The translations under genes and the position numbers were made by a program. A stretch of DNA of 63,433 bases, filler included, from Folioceros fuciformis (Eukaryota): the NCBI GenBank assembly GCA_049999805.1. It is 6 parts of 6 records of this genome, joined end to end, with 100 filler letters (N's around TTAATTAATTAA, not from the genome) between each part and the next. Parts side by side here need not be neighbours in the genome. Positions count along the whole stretch, not along the records: positions 20,090 to 29,034 come from JBNGIO010004151.1; 5 more parts are not named here. One strand, given 5' to 3'. Below the pieces are notes generated by a model. That model was not told where the DNA came from. It saw only the letters and a program-made list of their open reading frames with translations, and ran no database searches. Position 1 is the first letter of the stretch. Each line of letters begins with the position of its first letter. Of the stretch, positions 13,601 to 62,001 are shown piece after piece.

Positions 13601-13700
13601 NNNNNNNNNNNNNNNNNNNNNNNNNNNNNNNNNNNNNNNNNNNNTTAATTAATTAANNNNNNNNNNNNNNNNNNNNNNNNNNNNNNNNNNNNNNNNNNNN
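13601..13700. other. Artificial contig linker N44-TTAATTAATTAA-N44 (also 19990-20089, 29035-29134, 40587-40686, 61902-62001)
   Basis: Identical 100-nt construct carrying stop codons in all six frames, present five times. Confidence 0.95.
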
Positions 13701-19375: not shown

Positions 19376-21418
19376 TTAGAAGTGGCAGAGCGGGCCAAGC
19401 GTCTACATCCTCGAAAGCCAGGAGGAGAGCTTGTGCGAGAAGAGGGGGTTGAGACACAGCAGCAGACGTTAGTACGCAAGAGATGGTTGAGCTACACAAC
19501 ATTGACCAAGTCCTTTGTACGTTTCTTGAGGTAGAACAGATTCCAATACGCCTCTACTCTGGGTTTCTGGGAGCACCTCAGATTGACCCATTTGCCGCGC
19601 GTTGCTGCTGGAAACTTGGCAACTGCCACTAGGGACATTCCTGAGAAACGGAAGCCAAAAAAACCGAGACTGCGGTGAAAATTGCTACAGTGCACAGGCA
19701 GAACACAGGTGGAATGACAAGAATGTTGTTTGCCAAGGCGTTAGTTACCTTGCGGCTCGCCTTGGAGAGAGCGGTGACAAGTGCCCCGTTTTCAACACCA
19801 GCGCTCCTCGTCACTGCCCCACCACTGCCGTCGCCACAACCTGCGCAATTGCGAAAAACGGAAAAGCTGAAGAATCTTGGCAGAGCCCTAAACCCCGGAC
19901 GACTGAATGCGGAGGGAGCGGGAGAATGCGAGCGCGAGGGCGAGGCTCCGGAGCGACTCCGGCTCGGGACCGGGTTCCGGCCTCCGGGGNNNNNNNNNNN
20001 NNNNNNNNNNNNNNNNNNNNNNNNNNNNNNNNNTTAATTAATTAANNNNNNNNNNNNNNNNNNNNNNNNNNNNNNNNNNNNNNNNNNNNCTCTCTAACAC
20101 ACACCGATTCACAGAGAGAACATATATAGCCTAGCCCTTCTCTAAACAATACGATGTAGACTTTGTTTAAATAGCTAAGCCTTCCCCTTTACTTTTACCT
20201 GCTCTTCGTATTTTCTAAAATCTTGTACGATAAACTCTTTTGTTCTATAAAAAAAACATTCTGTCCTTGTTTGCAACTAATATGGAAACTCATCTACCTG
20301 AAAGAGGTAGATAGACCACCAAAGGTGAGTGGCCCACTAGGGGCTAGACCCATACGAGAAAATTTCTTTACTTGAGAATAATAAGGTGCGAAATCCATCT
20401 ATCCCAAAAAGGGTGAGACAAACCACCAAATAATAGGATGGGAAATCCATCTATCCTAAAAAGGGTTAGACAATATACCAAAAAAAGGCAACTATTGTAA
20501 ATTTCTCGTGCTCATGATTTCTACCCCATGAAAAGATGTTATGCTCATCAGCCAATGGATACATCTTCATGTTTATGATTTCTGAATTGGACTAGAATGG
20601 TTTAGAGCTCTTAACCATTAAGAATATTTATTCACCATTCATCATAAGAACCCATTCATTAAGAATACATTTCCACACCCATCTTATCATTGTAGTGTAC
20701 CTTGATACTCTTGGAGCAAAACTATTTAACCTTAGTGCACGTTCACAACAAAAGAAACAAAGAGGAAACATGAGTAAAAGATCACATCATACATAAGATA
20801 ATCTCAAATATGCTAAGAATGATCAATATGTATTTTAACTTATAATCTACAAATAAGTTACGAAATGAATGGATATTGCAAGATTATCATGGGGTGTGTA
20901 ATTGATTCAAGTCATATGAAGTACTTAATACAAGTTATCTATCTAAATATTCTAAAACAATTAATATATATATGATGTTCATATATCCTCACTTTCTTCT
21001 TTTTTTCCCTCATGCTTAGGATAAATAGGATGTCCCATGTTCTCTTTCAATATAAATATGATTAGTATAACAAACTTAAGAATAACAAAAAAATATTATA
21101 ACTTGAGATAATAATAAGACATCCAATAACTTGAACACATTATCATATAGGCCAACAAATATAATGACCTAAGAACTTAAAACGCAGCATAAACCAACTA
21201 CAGCCTACATCTTGGTCCAAGCTCGGTTGTCGAAATGAATTAATGTATATAGTACAATCTACGGGTCCATAGCTGGCCCTGTCCCAACGTTGGAAAATCG
21301 TTAGTCACCTTTTCAATGATCTAAGGCCTAATAGGAATACAACACAATCCGTCCCTCAACCTCAACGTCTTCCTACATTCCGAGTTATTAGCAAAATTGG
21401 CTGACAAAACAGGTAGTA

Positions 21419-22848
21419 TCAGCTTGTTGACTTCCTTTTCCCACCAGAGACACGACGTTGGCTTGTCCTCGTCCTCTTGTTCTCGGCTGCATTCTTCTCC
21501 TCGCTATCCTCTGCGAATCTCTTTCTTTCTGTTACTGGAGATTCTGCAGTTGCCTTCTGAGTTTCGGTTCCTGCTTTCAAGTCTGCTGCTTGCTTCACTT
21601 CATCCAGGCTGTGGCGAAGGATACCTGTCACAACTGCATACTGAACTGCGAGGCCATTCCTCTAGGCAAGTCAATCGCATCCATTCTTGCAACCTGGCCG
21701 CAAGAACTGTCTTTGGTCGCTTGAGCCGCAACATCTCAACAGCTTTATCTGTATTTTGAGTCGCTTCTTCCTGCTCAGATTCCTGCCAGTCATAGATTGG
21801 TTAGAACGACCACAAGAGACCCCACCATATGCTGATGAGACTTCACATCGCATCGAAATCCCCTCGGTTGCTGCGCACCTAGAGGAGCCTCGCACGGGCT
21901 TCTGGGATGGCGACCTGATCCAGATACCTCAGTTCGTCTTCCGCCTCTTCGGCCGTCCACAACCAGGGACCTCCATCCAAGAACTGTAGTACCGGTATCC
22001 CGGCCGGGATGCCGAGGTCGCCGACCAGAAGCAGCACGCCTGCTTGCAGGCGCACCGCCTCCTGTGTACAGGATAGCGAGTAGGCTTGGTCCAGGTGTTG
22101 GACGGCATCTTGCTTGAGCCTAGTGATGTTGTCGTGCACGAAAAGGCAAACGGTATATGAATCATGGCTACACTCCTACAAAATCCACACTCAAGATCAG
22201 CTTGATATGATCTAGCATGATATGATACGGTTGCGCCTCAAGTATAGTACCGGCGATGCCATGACCTGCTCCAGTGTATCGAGTAGTCGTGAATACTCGG
22301 CCACCTCCGACCAATGGTGGTGGATGTTTAGGACACTCGACGCAGCTTGCCGTCGCTCGAGAAGAATCTCCAGGCGTCTTTGGATCACCGTTGGCTGCCG
22401 TCATAGCAACCCTCTTACAACCTCGCACGCCACTTCGGACCCGGTCGGCTGCTCCTGGGCAGCGGCAATTGGAGCTCGCACTTGGTTTCAATTCCGATCT
22501 TTATCAAACGTCTCTCCACTGGCTGGACAAGGCACCCTTACCTAGCCAGGGATGGGAATGGGAAGGACAATGGTCAGATGCTAGATGCTAGCCAGCCTTT
22601 TGAATCCGCCTTTGCATCAACGTTGACGTTACCGTGTGCTGGAGGTCTGGAGGCAAAGCGCTCCACCTCCGTTGCAATCCGTTGCAATCTTTTCTCGTTT
22701 CCGGCCCGCTCCGCATCACGCTATCGGCCATGGCAGAGCTCTCAACCAGATGCACCAGAACTGGTTGGACTCCAAGCGGCACCTCCGTACAACCATCTCC
22801 GCGATCCAACAGGCTTCTCTTTTTCACGACATCATCTTCCAGCCCCAT
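21419..22848 (-). pseudogene. Putative spliced gene of unknown family with in-frame stops
   Basis: Phase-consistent GT-AG exon chain (..WSALPPDLQHT|VRVP..LDTLEQ|ECSHDSY..EARARL*|ESEQEE..) with TGA at 22488-90, TGA at 22401-03 and TAG at 21879-81. Family not recognised; 3' end uncertain. Confidence 0.35.
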
Positions 22849-23038
22849 CAAACATGTTGTGCGACTCTTTGAATAACTGTCGACCAGAACTGACTGGAAG
22901 ATAAGCCACAGAGTAATAAGAAAGCTCTACAGCCTTTGAACACTCTTGTCTGCATGTAGAGAACAAAAACGCTGTTCTCTGGCCAACATTGTCGGTATGT
23001 ACTCAATCAGATATCCCTCGGCACGTGCCTGGTAAGAT

Positions 23039-23850
23039 TTAGAAATGCTTCTCAATTCGCTTGGCCTTTTCTCCTGACTTATGGTCATAGTACTCCACCA
23101 GAGCAGAGCCAGCAAGGGCTGCTAGCGTGAGTGCCTGTGCATGCAACCTGTGAGCCATGACAAAAAGCTGCGTGAGTTGTAACGCTCAACTCCGACTGTG
23201 GTACAACGTGCACACACACTGCATCAAGACTTCCCGAACCAAGATAACCACACCTTGCATGTATGATCTTCACACTCAGTGACATCCCCTTCTGTGAGAA
23301 ATTGTACGCCAGAGAACTTATCAAACCACCGGCCCACAGAGTTCCTGACACCAGAACCGTGTAAGGTGAGAAACCCTAAAGACCAGCCTCGTCAATCACT
23401 CTCAGCAGCACACATGCAGCGCAATCGGAGATACCCAGCAAGGCAAGTACCACAAAGTTCGGCTGGGAATCAATCCAGAAAGCTGTCACTCCAGCCACAA
23501 CCTGCAAGGCAGAGAGAGCCATCATCTAGGCTTGAACCAGATACACCTCTCATCAAAGCCTACCCCCCTCCACAACTCTCACGTGCAATTTAACATCACT
23601 TCGGCGAGACCTCCCACAGAAGTCTACCAACCTCCACCACTCTGGCGTGCGTGCAACTCAACATCCGTTCAGCAAGACCCTCGAAAATCTTCACATGTCA
23701 ACCTCCAATGGATTCCTACCAAGAAGACAAATCAACAGCAATGCTTCAGGTCACCCTACCTACTGCCTGAAGCTTATGCTCAATCAGCCATGATCTCATC
23801 GAATCGTAGGCAGCACGACTGCCAGTCTCACTCTCCGGCTCGACCGCCAT
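23039..23850 (-). CDS. HIG1-domain (hypoxia-induced, RCF1-like) membrane protein; exons 23850-23760, 23344-23254, 23147-23039
   Basis: MRSWLIEHKLQAVG|TLWAGGLISSLAYN..SVKIIHAR|LHAQALTLAALAGSALVEYYDHKSG matches the plant HIG1 family. Confidence 0.92.
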
Positions 23851-24491
23851 GGCTCCAGTACGCAGGCAGCAGAAGCTGCAAACACCAAGAAATCCTCCAC
23901 AGAGCTCCCCCACCCAATAAGTTCAGTCGCTCCAATGTCCACTCCCTCCTCCAGACCTTCCGCTTCTCAAGGCGGCCAAAGTTTCACAGCCAGCAATCTG
24001 AATACAGAAGCCACGCAATTCGTCCTTCCTTCCTTCCTTGCAAAGCAGCGGATGGCGAGCCACGCTTCAATGCAAAAGTCCGGGCCCCTATTCCTCCAGT
24101 GTGAACTGTACTACTGTATATCGACGCTCAGGGAACCAGGCTAGCCAGATCATCCGATTGTAGGGCAACCTATCCTTCACTAAAGGAGCCATGGCTGCTC
24201 TGCGACTGTACGGAGGGATCTTGGCCAACAGGGTATGGGCTATAAGGTCCAATAATAATTGGTGAAAAAACAAATTAAACGGAACGGAGTTAACCCCCGT
24301 TCCCATCGGGCTGCCTCCCCGCTCGACCGTCCCTCGGCTANNNNNNNNNNNNNNNNNNNNNNNNNNNNNNNNNNNNNNNNNNNNNNNNNNNNNNNNNNNN
24401 NNNNNNNNNNNNNNNNNNNNNNNNNNNNNNNNNNNNNNNNTTTTGCTGCATGGAGTAGGATTGGGTTGCGGCTTGGAGGGCTGTGTCCGCA

Positions 24492-27400
24492 ATGAATCCT
24501 TCTGCAAGTTGGTGTGGCACGGCGTTGCGCGCGCTCGTATGCACCCTTGCAGTCTCCTCGCTGTGGAATGTCCTCGCTGCGGGAGCCGGAAGTGGTGCTA
24601 GTGGCCCAGGTTCGTGAGCTTTCTTATTTGGTTTGGTTGTCGTGTGTGTCAAAACATGTGTTTTGCATCTGGGTTTGGCTTGACTGATCAGGAGTTTGTG
24701 TCTTCTGCAATTCTGGCCTGACAGATGTTGTTGCCTGCGTTTTTGGCTGAGAGATTGCCCCCTCCAGCTGGTCGCAGCGTGACGTACCTTTGTTGGCGGG
24801 TTGACACTGTGCTCTCAGACTGGTAGAGAACATGAACCGTATGTAGGACGTGTCTGGCTGCGGTGTGCTTGAAACTTGTGGTGGGATGCATCCGCGGCGG
24901 ATGCATCCTGACATTTAGTTCAATTTTTCCGCATCCTCTAGGAACTCCTAAAGCAATACTGTTTTCCTTGGTCCGCCAGGTCGAAGAGCAGACGATCTTG
25001 TCTTGACCTGATCCTATTTTGCTTTCGACCTACCTCTTCTGTCTCTGACAAACGTGTCAATTTCCCTAATCCTGAGAAGATCTGAATCAGGAAGCCGGTG
25101 ATAGTTGTCCCTGAAAGGCAGGTTGTATTGCCTCCATCCGATATTTTCCCATACCAGACGAAGCAGAAATCTAAGGCGTGCCTGTAACCCTTGCCCATGG
25201 TCGCTCGATGAAGGACCGGTGGGTAGTGGCTCTGCGAAGAGTTGCCCAGAGTGCCCCGATGCAGCGCTTGCAGGAGCGCCTCTGGGGTTGTTCTCAGACG
25301 AAATGGAGTGCTGCAGCAGAGGCCAATTCCGGCAGTGTCATCTGGCTACTGGGGGTCTGCTACAAAGTTCCTGCAGTGGCTGAGGGTGGGGACAAGTCTG
25401 TGGCAGAGAAGGCGCTGTCGGAGTTCTTGGAGGACTTTAGTTCCAGACTGTGGCTCTCCTATCGCAGAGGTTTCGAGGCTTTAGGTGAATCCAAGATTAC
25501 CTCCGATGCGGGGTGGGGCTGCATGGTCCGAAGTGGCCAGATGCTGGTGGCCCAGGCTCTCATATTTCACCGCTTGGGGAGGTCGTGGCGGAGGAACTCC
25601 CAGAAGCAAGCATCACAAGATTACTTGGAGATAGTGGGAAGCTTTGGAGATTCGTTTGCTGAAAGTTGTCCCTTTTCTCTACATAACATACTGGAAGTTG
25701 GACGCCCCCATGGGTTGACCGTGGGCTCATGGATGGGACCTTATGCTCTTTGCAGGGCTCTAGAGGCCCTGGGTCACGCAGACAGGCTGAGGTGTCGTGC
25801 AGGACAAGGAAAGCGTTCCTTGCCCATGGCAGTGTATGTTGTTTCCGGTGAAGCAGAGGGTGCACGAGGAGGAGCTCCAGTTTTATGCATTGATGATGCT
25901 GCCGATTGTTGCCGGGCTGAGCCTGGCACGGAGTGGGCTTCGCTCTTGGTGCTTGTTCCCCTTGTCTTGGGGCTGGACAAAGTGAATCCCTTGTACCTGC
26001 CTTCTTTGCAGGCGACGTTTGAATTCCCCCAGAGCCTTGGAATTCTGGGAGGCAAACCAGGTGCTTCAACTTATATTGTTGGTGTTCAGGATGATCAGGT
26101 TTTGTATCTGGATCCCCACGACGTGCAGCCCACTGTCAAAATCGACCCAAGCGTGCCTGATGCAGACTCTAGCTCTTACCACTCTGGTTTGGTGCGCCGG
26201 ATGCGTTTGGATGCGATTGACCCATCATTGGCGCTGGGGTTCTATTGTCGAAATAAGGAGGAGTTTGATGACCTCTGTAGGCGGGCTTCAGATCTCGCAG
26301 GTCATTCAAATGGTGCTCCCATGTTCACAGTAGCTAAAGAGAGAGGCAATGGAAATCAGGTCGCGAGCCTCTGTCTGGACGAAGATAAGTCTGCAGTGAA
26401 TGTACAGGCAATCACGGCTGGAGACAGAAGTGTAGATAATGTTGCCGAAGAGGACTGGCAGATTCTTTGATGTATTCAGATAATCAAGTTATTCTTCATG
26501 CTCGTCTTCCAGTTCAGATTGGATTGTTTGAAGATGCTGCCTTGCTTCATAGTGGCGGAGCCGTATTAGCCAGGGAGGATACACTTTCCTGGACTAAAAG
26601 CTCTCTCCCCTCCCGGGGCCAAGGTCTGCAGATGGATTGCAGCGACTGTAATATTTGTTTCTTGACAAAAGGCTGGGGAGTCTAGTCACCAGGAACCAAC
26701 ATAGATTTGGTTGCACATAAGGAAGCAGGAGAAGGCACATCTTCAGAATCATGGTCACTTCTAATTGGTCCTATAGATTGATATTGCCTTAGGTTCAGGA
26801 ATCAGACGGCAGTATAACATTTTGTTTATTTTGGCCTGCAAAGGACCTCTGTTTTGGAATATTACGAAAGGAGCAGATTTACCTGTCAAACAGTGCTGTG
26901 ATTTCCTGGACTGTCATGCTTGTATCTTGGAATTTGTTCAGAGTTGTCTGCTCGGCTAACTTGTCTACAACTTTCTGAACAACTCAAAAAGTGGGTTTTG
27001 TTTGTTTTCAACTCAGGAGTTTGCAATTCCCAGGGTGGCAGGTTCCCGAAATTCTCCTTCGAAGGGCAGAGTCCAAGGAAAGCCTCCAAGGGTCCGGGTG
27101 ACTTGACTTTGTGCCGGGTCTACCACAAGAAGACCTGCTGCACAGCAGTGCAGACTCGGGCTGCTCTCTTGTCATTAGCTAAGTTGGCCTCGAATGGGGA
27201 GGCGAACAAGCAATGTCTAGAGTTGTGGGAAGTACTGGAGTGTTCAATATGTGATCCGCAAGTGGGAGTCAATCCTGGTCCTCCATTGCTGTGCTCTTCA
27301 TTTTGTGAGGGGGTGTATGAGGCTTGTGGTGATGCCTTCTTTTCAGCAGATCCTTCGACTCAGGTACTTGCTTTGCCCACATTATGGGCTTCGTGGAAAA

Positions 27401-28015
27401 TGTTCGTTGTCTCTTCTCCCCAATTTTTGAAATTATTGGTTTCTCTCAAGCAGGTGTTGATCCCCTGTAAGGATACTGTTTGTGCGCGGGGACGGGAATG
27501 GGCGTCTAGCAGCACAGAATTTTGTAAGCTTGCTGGGTTCTCTGTTCCAATTGCAGAAGAGGACCTCAAGAGTCTTCCTGCTTGTTATGATGGGAAAGTA
27601 CACCACATCGACACCGAACCCCTTTTTGAGAAGCGCCAATCCACTGCTAAAGGTCGGTACAGATTTAGCTACCTCAGATATCTGAGAAAAATTTTCAGAA
27701 GGATGACATCTGGTGAAAACGTTTCTTGGGCCGTCGGTGGCTTAGTCTTGACCGGGGGCGCCCTCTATTTGTTTAGGTACGTGTCAGCCTTGCTCTCTCC
27801 TATCTCCCAATCATCCCGTCGCAATTCGTACTCACTTTTGTAGGGTCGACCAACTCACAGGCGGAGGGGTTTTAAACCCAGGAGCAGGCAAGAATTGGCA
27901 GCACGTCGCTCCAAAATCTATCAGGAAGCCCCAACTCGGCAGTCTCGAGGTAGTAACAGTATTGCCCAAAGATCTTGGGGAAAGGGGACCACCAAGGTTC
28001 CTGGAAGTTGAGTGA
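24492..28015 (+). CDS. Folate-receptor-family Cys-rich membrane protein; exons 24492-24609, 27017-27363, 27454-27776, 27844-~28015
   Basis: GVCNSQGGRFP..DLTLCRVYHKKTCC..CLELWEVLECSICDPQVG..PLLCSSFCEGVYEAC, C-terminal TM SWAVGGLVLTGG. The signal-peptide exon (MNPSASWCGTALRALVCTLAVSSLWNVLAAG..) is phase-compatible with the 27017 acceptor. Last exon uncertain. Confidence 0.8.
25208..26470 (+). CDS. ATG4: Autophagy cysteine protease ATG4 (peptidase C54), intronless CDS
   Basis: IWLLGVCY, catalytic TSDAGWGCMVRSGQML, FPQSLGILGGKPGASTYIVGVQ, YLDPH, DPSLALGFYC, and C-terminal AIM/LIR EEDWQIL. Confidence 0.96.
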   Translation: MKDRWVVALRRVAQSAPMQRLQERLWGCSQTKWSAAAEANSGSVIWLLGVCYKVPAVAEGGDKSVAEKALSEFLEDFSSRLWLSYRRGFEALGESKITSDAGWGCMVRSGQMLVAQALIFHRLGRSWRRNSQKQASQDYLEIVGSFGDSFAESCPFSLHNILEVGRPHGLTVGSWMGPYALCRALEALGHADRLRCRAGQGKRSLPMAVYVVSGEAEGARGGAPVLCIDDAADCCRAEPGTEWASLLVLVPLVLGLDKVNPLYLPSLQATFEFPQSLGILGGKPGASTYIVGVQDDQVLYLDPHDVQPTVKIDPSVPDADSSSYHSGLVRRMRLDAIDPSLALGFYCRNKEEFDDLCRRASDLAGHSNGAPMFTVAKERGNGNQVASLCLDEDKSAVNVQAITAGDRSVDNVAEEDWQIL

Positions 28016-28726
28016 TGGTGAGTTTAGATGTCGTGGGAGGAGAAGTTGTGACAAAATCTCTCCATAGTTTATATAAACTCTGCGAACTTTTCTTTGTATT
28101 TACCTTAAACTTCGGACGCAGTTCAGGGACTTCCATTCACGAAAGGTTTTGTTCTGGCCACTGTGACAAGATTTCTATTGGGGTCCACCCTAAGCATTGA
28201 CAAGCATTGCTACTTTCTCAACCGTGTCTACTCACTTTTGGAAATACTAACTCCTCTTGGAAAGACACAAATTGCCTGAATGCAGTGGACATTCTGAGAG
28301 CTGGGAGGATCTTCTTGGAAGTCAAAATCATGACTTGGAAAATGTACATTGCTACAGCTCTTGTGCTGTCTGCCTCTCAATTCTCCCAGGATTACGCAGG
28401 GTATGCTACTGAATGGGGGCTCCCTAGTACTACACAAAGCCATGAGCCCCGAGTACTACCCAAAGCCATACTTGAATAAATAGGGGCCCAGGGATCCGAT
28501 TTCCCAAGCCGTCCTACTGATATGGGGATGTCCTGGCTATCAGGCCTCAGATGGCAAGTCAAGACGACGAAGTCTAGATATCTCACCTACTACAAAAATT
28601 GAGCAAAAATAATCTTAAGCTACGGCGCAAGCAAACACCAGGGCCATTATCACGCTATTCGGCTGTACAGTGTGCCGAATTGGCACATTAGCAGATCAAT
28701 GTCGCACTGAGATAGCAGGATGAGGC

Positions 28727-29034
28727 TCAGTCTCTACTTGGAGGACTGTGTAGGGCATCGACACTGCCAGCATAAGACCAGGGTTTATACTTGGGATTGT
28801 GACTGGACAGATCATACTTGGGGCTGTACCTCGGGCTGTCATACTTGGGTAGGCTATCATACTTGTCTGGCAAGGGTGGCTTCCCATGGCTTTCCATCTC
28901 TGGTTTCTCATCCTCTTCCTCTGCATCCTTAGCTACGATGTACTCAGACAGAGCTTTGCCCAGAGTAGGACCTAGTTTGTAGCCCTTCTTCCCAAGATGC
29001 GGGCTGGGGGCATAAGGAGGGGTCATACCAGGAC
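28727..29034 (-). CDS. 3' fragment of a Pro/Tyr/Lys-rich protein (PKY repeats, cell-wall-protein-like), cut by a linker
   Basis: Open frame running into the gap: KYDSLPKYDSPRYSPKYDLSSHNPKYKP. No family recognised. Confidence 0.35.
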
Positions 29035-29135
29035 NNNNNNNNNNNNNNNNNNNNNNNNNNNNNNNNNNNNNNNNNNNNTTAATTAATTAANNNNNNNNNN
29101 NNNNNNNNNNNNNNNNNNNNNNNNNNNNNNNNNNT

Positions 29136-40560: not shown

Positions 40561-41499
40561 TACCTTTGGAGGCTTGTGAGGCGCTANNNNNNNNNNNNNN
40601 NNNNNNNNNNNNNNNNNNNNNNNNNNNNNNTTAATTAATTAANNNNNNNNNNNNNNNNNNNNNNNNNNNNNNNNNNNNNNNNNNNNATTCCCGATACCAG
40701 CACAACCAACCATCCACACCTTCCAGAACCGTACCCAGAGCCAGGCAGCCGAGAGCAGAGCGCCCAGAGCAAGGCAAGGTCAGGCAGAGGCGAAGCCCAA
40801 GACAGACGCAAACCAGCAACAAAGAAGCAAAGCAAGAGAGAGTGAGAGAGGAGGGCAGTACCGGACCAGACCAGGGCGGGGCCTTGGATCCAGGCTCGGC
40901 GCCGCAGGCTCGGGAACAGGCTCGGGCAAGGCTAGCGCTTACTCAGTCACCAATTTACGCATCCCGGATGGCTGAGGAGGAAGCCATGTGATATTTCGGG
41001 GCTGCGGCCAACCCCACCGTCGTGTCGGAGCAAGTCCCGCGGCCAAAGCCCAAGCCCAAGCCACAGGCAGGCCCTCCCGGCTCAACTATCCGGGGCCCGG
41101 GCCTTATCCGGGCGAGGTCGGGATATGCCAGGCAGCCTGCGTTTTTATGCCGGCACGCCAACCCCCCATTAACCCAGGGTCAGACGGGGATGCAACATTA
41201 TTGTGGAGCCTGGATGTGAATGAAAATGAAGGGGGTTGGTACGCCAGTAGGTGTGTCCAACCTAACCTTTCTCCTCATCCCGTGTCTCACCTCTCTTCGT
41301 ACTAGAAAAAGGCCGCCTCCCTCTATGCGTGCCATCCACTTTAATTTTCTTGTCGTTTCTACGTTTTCAAATTTCTTAGACACAACTTCATTATACAACC
41401 CCTGGGATAGACCAGACCACCTTTCTGCCCACTGTCTAAGACCATGAGAAGAAGACATAAGGCCTCATTGGTTTGGCACCAGTTGTAATTCCATCTTTA

Positions 41500-61901: not shown

Positions 61902-62001
61902 NNNNNNNNNNNNNNNNNNNNNNNNNNNNNNNNNNNNNNNNNNNNTTAATTAATTAANNNNNNNNNNNNNNNNNNNNNNNNNNNNNNNNNNNNNNNNNNN
62001 N

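Follow-up and report, generated by a model that had tools for sequence, protein, structure and literature searches.

How an intronless gene lying inside another gene comes to be expressed, and whether it draws on the first exon and promoter of the gene around it, is the question raised by a locus in the Folioceros fuciformis assembly GCA_049999805.1. We analysed a stretch of 63,433 nucleotides (nt), here called the window, in which parts of six records are joined end to end; the locus falls in the part taken from JBNGIO010004151.1 (positions 20,090 to 29,034), and all positions count along the window. The open reading frame (ORF) of a predicted ATG4, a core autophagy protease, occupies one exon there, on the same strand and within the first intron of a putative folate-receptor-like (FR) gene. 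A preliminary description, made from the sequence alone, had proposed that an ATG4 retrocopy captured the host promoter, so that a single transcription unit would choose between the two products by alternative 3' splice sites together with intronic polyadenylation. We find that exon 1 of the host gene and its donor are spliced alternatively to an ATG4-bearing exon or to FR exon 2, and the same-strand nesting of ATG4 inside FR intron 1 is practically beyond doubt. What the preliminary description said of the sequence holds, apart from small corrections of coordinates, and its interpretation is supported in part.

One first exon joined to two genes

The RNA data consist of assembled contigs from four runs (X1, X2, X9 and X16) aligned on positions 22000-29020. 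X2, X9 and X16 come from three other organisms and studies and have a low share of words with the window; the status of the runs as RNA was guessed, and X1 is taken as RNA solely from its spliced GT..AG and CT..AC joints. X1 carries 0.90 of the sampled words of 24441-28300, against at most 0.08 in the 21 other runs listed, and its missing tenth is about the size of three small introns and their edges. All 13 of its contig records are at least 99% alike to the window. Because its joints are GT..AG on the + strand and CT..AC in the upstream minus-strand gene, we read X1 as spliced RNA of this organism.

Two joints in X1 leave the same donor. One runs from 24609 to 27017 (listed as 24606 to 27014, with the cut moved by +3), skips 2407 nt bounded by GT..AG, and has a depth of 51.6 and a short side of 27 letters. 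The other runs from 24609 to 24725 (listed as 24606 to 24722, cut likewise +3), skips 115 nt, is again GT..AG with a side of 27, and is carried by one contig of 2349 nt (record 5) that begins with 27 nt of exon 1 and then follows 24722-27043 without a difference or a gap; this contig spans the ATG4 leader, the whole ORF, the 3' region and the first 27 nt of FR exon 2. The acceptor used before ATG4 reads CCTGACAG/ATGTTG, at 24724/24725. Three letters (CAG) are shared at both cuts, and the 27-letter sides plus these three make up the 30-letter overlap of 31-mer contigs, so that the junction words must occur in reads. X16 has a loose end of 26 letters at 27014, which matches 24581-24604 (24-letter test: two mismatches, the sole match in the window, 0 of 100 shuffles), which places the junction from 24609 to 27017 also in a related species from another study. 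The FR joint is thus found in two of the four runs (X1 and X16) and the joint from 24609 to 24725 explicitly in one (X1); we regard the exon 1-ATG4 junction as very probably real.

A first exon shared with ATG4 is what the preliminary description had suspected, and the 2349-nt contig bears this out, at another acceptor. The site that it had named, ...CCGCATCCTCTAG/GAACTC at 24941/24942, is present in the sequence, whereas the X1 contig crosses it unspliced, and no junction from 24609 to 24942 occurs among the joints listed (15 of 26).

The intron that encloses ATG4 had also been called far longer than its neighbours, and so it is: 2407 nt, against 84, 90, 106, 115 and 258/415 nt for the other introns seen in RNA within 22000-29020.

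A putative folate-receptor-like host gene

The FR frame is open only from 26902, after a stop at 26899-26901, and holds no in-frame ATG before 27017; this agrees with the earlier statement that the receptor exon has no nearby start and, together with the junction from 24609 to 27017, speaks against a first exon of its own in 26470-27000, which would have counted against the earlier proposal. The start had been sought instead in a 118-nt signal-peptide exon at 24492-24609, and the joint in X1 and X16 supports it: from the ATG at 24492 to the donor GCCCAG/GTTCGTGA at 24609/24610 there are 118 nt ending in phase 1 (39 codons and 1 nt, with a hydrophobic, signal-peptide-like N-terminus), and the donor, in the context CAG/GTTCGT, joins TCAG/GAGTTT (27016/27017) in frame. 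The spliced coding sequence (CDS), 24492-24609 + 27017-27363 + 27454-27776 + 27861-28011, comprises 939 nt and encodes 312 amino acids (aa) followed by one terminal stop. Of the earlier coordinates the start at 24492 holds, while the FR stop lies at 28009-28011 rather than at 28015, the end of FR exon 2 is at 27363, and the first exon begins farther upstream than 24492. An ATG at about 26917 was considered as an alternative FR start and rejected: the hydrophobic ORF starting there has 20 codons and lies in another frame, inspection by eye showed no convincing donor, and the observed junction overrides it.

The predicted product has 16 cysteines and hydropathy peaks at residues ~10-29 and ~245-262, its signal peptide being judged from hydropathy and the layout of homologues. 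FR exon 2 alone matches Folate_rec (PF03024) with an E value of 4.4e-14 and 53.2 bits (cut-off 29.8). A protein search gave 242 homologues with E <= 0.001 among 1321 candidates, and PF03024 was present in 120 of 120 among the matches listed. The FR exons are 48-51% identical to FR proteins of 290-320 aa from Marchantia, Riccia and others, and the order of N-terminal leader, Cys-rich ectodomain and C-terminal hydrophobic segment agrees with that of Marchantia, Riccia and Calypogeia proteins. In homologues the conserved VCxSQGGRFPKF block is preceded by a variable leader of ~25-60 aa, and the splice in the window falls there. By these similarities, the host gene is predicted to encode a folate-receptor-like secretory or membrane Cys-rich protein.

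In X1 the FR mRNA contig (3204 nt) shows the introns 27364-27453 and 27777-27860 removed. It also runs more than 1 kb past the stop to 29020 and then 1371 letters beyond the aligned stretch, an extension past 28011 that is either a very long 3' untranslated region or an overlap with a convergent neighbour.

An intact ATG4 reading frame in a single exon

The ATG4 ORF (25208-26467 plus stop) is a single uninterrupted frame of 420 codons. It matches Peptidase_C54 (PF03416) with an E value of 6.8e-90 and 301.7 bits (cut-off 25) over profile positions 2-276 of 276, in keeping with the earlier statement that the host intron holds a complete ATG4 CDS; the window contains one copy. In a protein search that returned 553 proteins with E <= 0.001 among 8000 scored candidates, the closest was P0001 (72% identity), followed by Sphagnum (61%) and by other bryophytes and a lycophyte (56-60%), at query coverages of 96-99%. 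Four columns are invariant in 14 of 14 aligned sequences: C105 (GWGCM), D302 and H304 (LDPH), and W417. We take C105, D302 and H304 to be the catalytic Cys, Asp and His known for the family. The C-terminal ..DWQIL tail of plant ATG4, which includes the invariant W417, is kept, and the N-terminus agrees with those of relatives, many of which begin at the position of the second Met (25259).

In a tree of 22 rows the window protein pairs with P0001 at a support of 100, on an end branch of 0.26 and with no long branch, and the two are placed separately from the mosses, liverworts, lycophytes, ferns and seed plants; the lineage may be a bryophyte group without named proteins in the database. On this comparison of proteins the ORF is a land-plant ATG4, intact and conserved, with a presumed protease role. 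It may be the main or only copy of the lineage.

Evidence for a probable retroposition

Metagenome contigs were scanned with the ATG4 alignment. This gave the best 80 of 509 confirmed loci, 14 of which were examined, chosen for long contigs or high identity. Seven are Sphagnum-like genomic loci, ~85-94% identical to named Sphagnum ATG4s, in which ATG4 is spread over ~3 kb as 5-6 separate tblastn pieces, broken near residues 88, 119-136, 267, 307-329 and 350 of the window protein. Six others are in 2-4 pieces, so that ATG4 lies in more than one piece at 13 of the 14 loci; the remaining one, L001, has no interruption and is possibly a transcript. The window ATG4 has none of the introns seen in the Sphagnum-like loci, and the genes around it retain short introns.

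In Riccia fluitans, Calypogeia fissa, Diphasiastrum complanatum, Adiantum capillus-veneris and Cryptomeria japonica, ATG4 and FR map to contigs that differ in length or to different chromosome tags; in Marchantia their linkage is ambiguous, and no FR match lies beside ATG4 among the nine metagenome ATG4 loci listed. The host intron itself seems to be older. A genomic FR protein of Marchantia (P0121) diverges from an mRNA-type one (P0122) just before GQEGVC and again after ..TQ, points that lie within a few codons (~4 at the first) of the two splice sites used here, and FR intron 1 is therefore probably ancestral.

The multi-piece Sphagnum-like ATG4 loci and the separation of ATG4 from FR elsewhere make a retrogene origin likely, as the preliminary description had proposed, and we consider it probable that a spliced ATG4 mRNA was retroposed into or beside FR intron 1.

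The same nesting in relatives

The aligned pieces of X2, X9 and X16 differ by ~5-11% from the window. All three runs have contigs colinear with ATG4, which with X1 makes four species; an X9 contig (26707-27043) bridges the ATG4 3' region and FR exon 2; and the spliced FR contigs of X2, X9 and X16 start at 27014 or 27017. From these three kinds of contig it follows that the nesting is older than the split of these species, and that at least four related species, that of the window and three relatives, have kept the arrangement. An X9 contig starts exactly at 24722, where, we infer from the k-mer overlap, spliced and unspliced paths merge at the acceptor.

Pieces of the ATG4 CDS align with 0 gaps in X2 (881 nt) and X16 (373 + 538 nt), whereas leader and 3' pieces of 337-408 nt from the relatives have 4-9 gaps each, a difference consistent with selection on the ATG4 reading frame.

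Three stretches of the unit stood out in the relatives. The 161 nt directly before the ATG4 start (25044-25204) were too diverged to align at 82% likeness in X2, X9 and X16; the leader before them and the CDS after them did align, which makes this the fastest-evolving part of the unit. Across 26362-26498, which includes the ATG4 C-terminus and stop, a lower-depth contig of X2 and X16 has 32 other letters in place of 137 nt (net -105 nt, a multiple of three), and for X2 alone the listing also has a higher-depth contig that is colinear (record 16, 26291-26698); the replacement could be an allele, a second ATG4 copy or an isoform. One X9 contig joins 26801 to 27039 through 17 other letters; in that relative, FR exon 2 may have a 5' end that is divergent or alternative.

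A model of co-transcription and its alternatives

We propose that ATG4 is a retrogene in FR intron 1 that is co-transcribed with FR, a model that we hold, taken as a whole, to be slightly better than an even prospect. ATG4 would have arrived by retroposition into or next to an ancestral short FR intron. Transcription would start upstream of 24441, either within the assembly gap or ahead of it, in head-to-head orientation to the minus-strand gene, and would make exon 1, a single promoter there driving both the ATG4 and the FR RNAs. Because the 5' end of the minus-strand gene (RNA to 24203) faces the shared exon, that promoter region should be short and is possibly bidirectional. Splicing to the distal acceptor at 27016/27017 would yield the FR mRNA, with its 312 aa of predicted signal peptide, Folate_rec domain and C-terminal membrane segment; splicing to the proximal acceptor at 24724/24725 would yield an RNA whose next exon holds the uninterrupted ATG4 ORF and has its poly(A) site some hundreds of nt past the stop. 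At least part of the ATG4 protein would come from this shared-exon RNA, through leaky scanning or reinitiation past a 47-codon upstream ORF (uORF); such inefficient translation could be regulatory. Whether the shared-exon RNA is a real source of ATG4 protein seems to us about evenly balanced.

A stricter form of the model, which we think unlikely, would make the sole ATG4 a promoterless orphan retrogene expressed only as an alternative terminal exon of FR, with the uORF and the other upstream AUGs gating its translation and with its output set by 3' splice choice, intronic polyadenylation and stress-dependent reinitiation. If this were true, a core autophagy enzyme would be tied to the promoter of a secretory-pathway gene.

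Several observations weigh against the proposed model. The spliced leader that begins with the shared exon is at least 652 nt long (from 24441) and has ten AUGs before the ATG4 start at 25208; the FR AUG, with a purine at -3, opens the 47-codon uORF, which ends at 24748, and a 4-codon uORF overlaps the ATG4 AUG. Ten upstream AUGs including the FR start argue against an efficient ATG4 mRNA and make a poor leader for a housekeeping protease. The joint from 24609 to 24725 is explicit in X1 only, and the 115-nt intron is retained in contigs of X2 and X16. Each junction is carried by a single assembled contig in a run, the shorter side being 27 letters long, and contigs come without read counts, starts or ends. 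At the 3' end, the X1 contig continues past ATG4 into FR exon 2, to 27043, and so gives no support to the intronic poly(A) site expected after 26470 in the preliminary description. Contigs do end near the ATG4 3' region in two different studies (X2 at 26698, X9 at 26731), with lower-depth contigs following, which is a weak hint of a poly(A) site near 26698-26731. There is no AATAAA in 26471-27016, where only AATATT at 26650 and 26858 was found, a signal search that is uninformative for plants. That same region has no run of six or more A, its sole run of at least five being AAAAA at 26986; a poly(A) remnant is expected to decay in an old insertion. The sole flanking repeat, an 11-nt exact direct repeat (TCAGGAGTTTG) at 24688-24698 and 27013-27023, has its first copy inside the 115-nt intron and its second spanning the FR exon-2 acceptor; were it the mark of a target-site duplication, FR intron 1 would originally have been ~82 nt long, and its score was matched or beaten by 18 of 500 and by 56 of 200 shuffles, so that it does not stand out clearly from chance.

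In another reading, ATG4 is an independent nested gene with its own promoter in FR intron 1, and RNAs running from exon 1 to 24725 are unproductive by-products, made by forced exonization or by use of a cryptic acceptor, with intron retention, that are probably decayed and yield little ATG4 protein. The ten upstream AUGs, with the 47-codon uORF from the FR start among them, fit such a reading, as do the X2 and X16 contigs in which the 115-nt intron is unspliced, so that the junction is not uniformly used among the relatives. There are precedents for it as well: in human cells, host transcripts are described that undergo forced exonization and cryptic polyadenylation upstream of genes nested in them (PMC3192792), and VAChT-specific promoters lie inside ChAT's first intron (PMC3053374). 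Against it, no intronic transcript start was seen, in contigs that could not show one; the depth of the X1 exon-1 contig (86.5) is about the sum of those of the two junction contigs (47.2 + 51.6), though a whole-contig mean is a poor measure; and the 161 nt before the ATG4 AUG are the least conserved part of the leader among the relatives. We judge an independent promoter possible, yet doubtful.

The missing poly(A) remnant and the lack of a significant target-site duplication would also suit an ATG4 that never was retroposed into this intron, whose introns disappeared where they stood (recombination with its own cDNA is one route) or which was intron-poor from the start, with FR exon 1 split off later by a DNA rearrangement or insertion. 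The nearest protein, P0001 (72%), is likewise a single ORF on an 11-kb contig, and intronlessness may therefore be old in the clade. This history would, however, have all of the at least five intron positions of the Sphagnum-like loci absent at once while neighbouring genes keep short introns, and it sits poorly with ATG4 and FR being unlinked in five other plants and with a Marchantia FR intron at nearly the same place, which makes a pre-existing host intron the simplest target; we consider it quite improbable. That the junctions themselves are spurious, produced by chimeric contigs, by template switching or by DNA present in the run, and that FR uses another first exon in 26470-27016 is hardly credible. 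The runs are only guessed to be RNA and each joint rests on one contig with a 27-letter side, but both joints are GT..AG with only three letters (CAG) shared at the cut; X1 shows four such joints on the + strand and several CT..AC joints in the minus-strand neighbour, with the small introns absent; the FR joint recurs in X16, from a different organism and study; no in-frame ATG lies between the stop at 26899-26901 and 27017; and the spliced FR product aligns with its homologues from the signal peptide onward.

Features of the locus and its surroundings

The coordinates are collected in Table 1. Since the 100-N gap lies directly upstream of exon 1, the 5' end of the exon and the promoter are hidden: the exon reaches back to 24441 plus at least 79 unaligned contig letters into the gap, and the unaligned letters entering it number 79-164 in the contigs of X1, X2, X9 and X16.

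Table 1. Features of the ATG4/FR locus, in window positions.
Feature	Positions	Strand	Basis or remark
Assembly gap, 100 N	24341..24440	n/a	Immediately 5' of shared first exon
Shared first exon, visible part	24441..24609	+	X1 contig record 4, 0 differences
Intron of 115 nt, proximal 3' splice site ACAG/ATG	24610..24724	+	X1 joint GT..AG
ATG4 leader	24725..25207	+	X1 contig; 6 of 10 upstream AUGs of spliced leader
Predicted intronless ATG4 CDS, 420 aa + stop, peptidase family C54	25208..26470	+	Pfam PF03416, RNA contigs
ATG4 3' region = remainder of FR intron 1	26471..27016	+	X1 contig continuous to 27043; acceptor TCAG/ at 27016
FR intron 1, 2407 nt, host intron enclosing ATG4	24610..27016	+	X1 joint; X16 loose end
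FR exon 2, Cys-rich, predicted Folate_rec domain	27017..27363	+	PF03024; joint 27363 to 27454 in 4 of 4 runs
FR exon 3, including C-terminal hydrophobic segment	27454..27776	+	Joints 27363 to 27454 (4 of 4 runs), 27776 to 27861 (3 of 4 runs)
FR last coding part, stop 28009-28011	27861..28011	+	X1 RNA contig, ORF
Upstream head-to-head gene, CT..AC introns	22629..24203	-	X1 records 2 and 3; joints 23145 to 23252, 23343 to 23759

In the upstream minus-strand gene, the X1 joints 23343 to 23450 and 23499 to 23758 compete with 23343 to 23759, which implies a cassette exon at ~23451-23499; the skipping form alone was seen in the three relatives. No Pfam family was found in the ORF pieces of the upstream and downstream minus-strand genes. 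In the window as a whole there are five plain 100-N gaps and one 10-N gap, and paired blocks of 44 N with exactly 12 bases between them recur, in an oddly regular pattern of masking or gaps, at 13601-13700, 19990-20089, 29035-29134, 40587-40686 and 61902-62001.

Discussion

The arrangement is one known from animals, of which the present locus is a plant example. In the cholinergic locus, as an excerpted account has it, the whole VAChT ORF lies in one exon inside ChAT's first intron, multiple promoters and alternative splicing give both mRNAs, and the organization extends from nematodes to mammals (PMC3053374). Our locus resembles it in having a single-exon ORF in the first intron of a host, with the ATG4 exon and FR exon 2 as the two alternative partners of exon 1. 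Eiden is said to have described, in 1998, a common 5' exon of the cholinergic locus spliced to either gene. That shared exon is non-coding, whereas the one shared here codes for the start and predicted signal peptide of the host protein and becomes a uORF for ATG4. The two loci differ further in that VAChT and ChAT serve one pathway, the synthesis and packaging of acetylcholine, while ATG4 and FR have no evident link; in that the cholinergic locus is ancient and the ATG4/FR arrangement lineage-specific; and in that the present case concerns a core autophagy gene in a bryophyte-like plant.

Most described host-fused retrogenes come from mammals and flies, and Wang et al. reportedly surveyed retrogenes in plants in 2006. 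Retrogenes can gain 5' introns and promoters through fusion transcripts with the exons of nearby genes, according to the portions seen of two accounts (PMC5470649, PMC7290577). ATG4 is like them in being an intronless CDS from an intron-bearing family; unlike chimeric retrogenes, it receives no residues from the host coding exon, whose frame stops at 24748. Orphan retrogenes that have replaced their parents are described in humans in part of one of these sources (PMC5470649), and ATG4 shares with them that it is intact and conserved and represents its clade with a normal branch length; it is possibly an orphan retrogene itself.

A further comparison is with transcriptional interference at nested genes, as with KTI12 in TXNDC12, where, in the excerpts available, host transcripts exonize intronic sequence upstream of the nested gene and may end at its poly(A) site (PMC3192792, PMC7290577). 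Both cases have an intronless gene nested in a host locus; that model, however, gives the nested gene its own promoter and treats the host transcripts as products of interference. A narrow search of full-text literature, without supplements, found no report of an intronless or nested plant ATG4, and no nested plant locus with a shared first exon was described among the matches listed in such a search.

For genome annotation the locus carries a warning, as gene finders tend to miss the FR signal-peptide exon or to fuse both genes. For the biology of retrogenes it offers an RNA-supported plant case in which a retrogene would have met its need for a promoter by being spliced to the first exon of the gene that it entered. 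And because this retrogene is predicted to encode a core autophagy protease, the locus lets one study how an essential gene copes with depending on its host, or with interference from it, and whether splice-site choice together with upstream ORFs regulates autophagy capacity.

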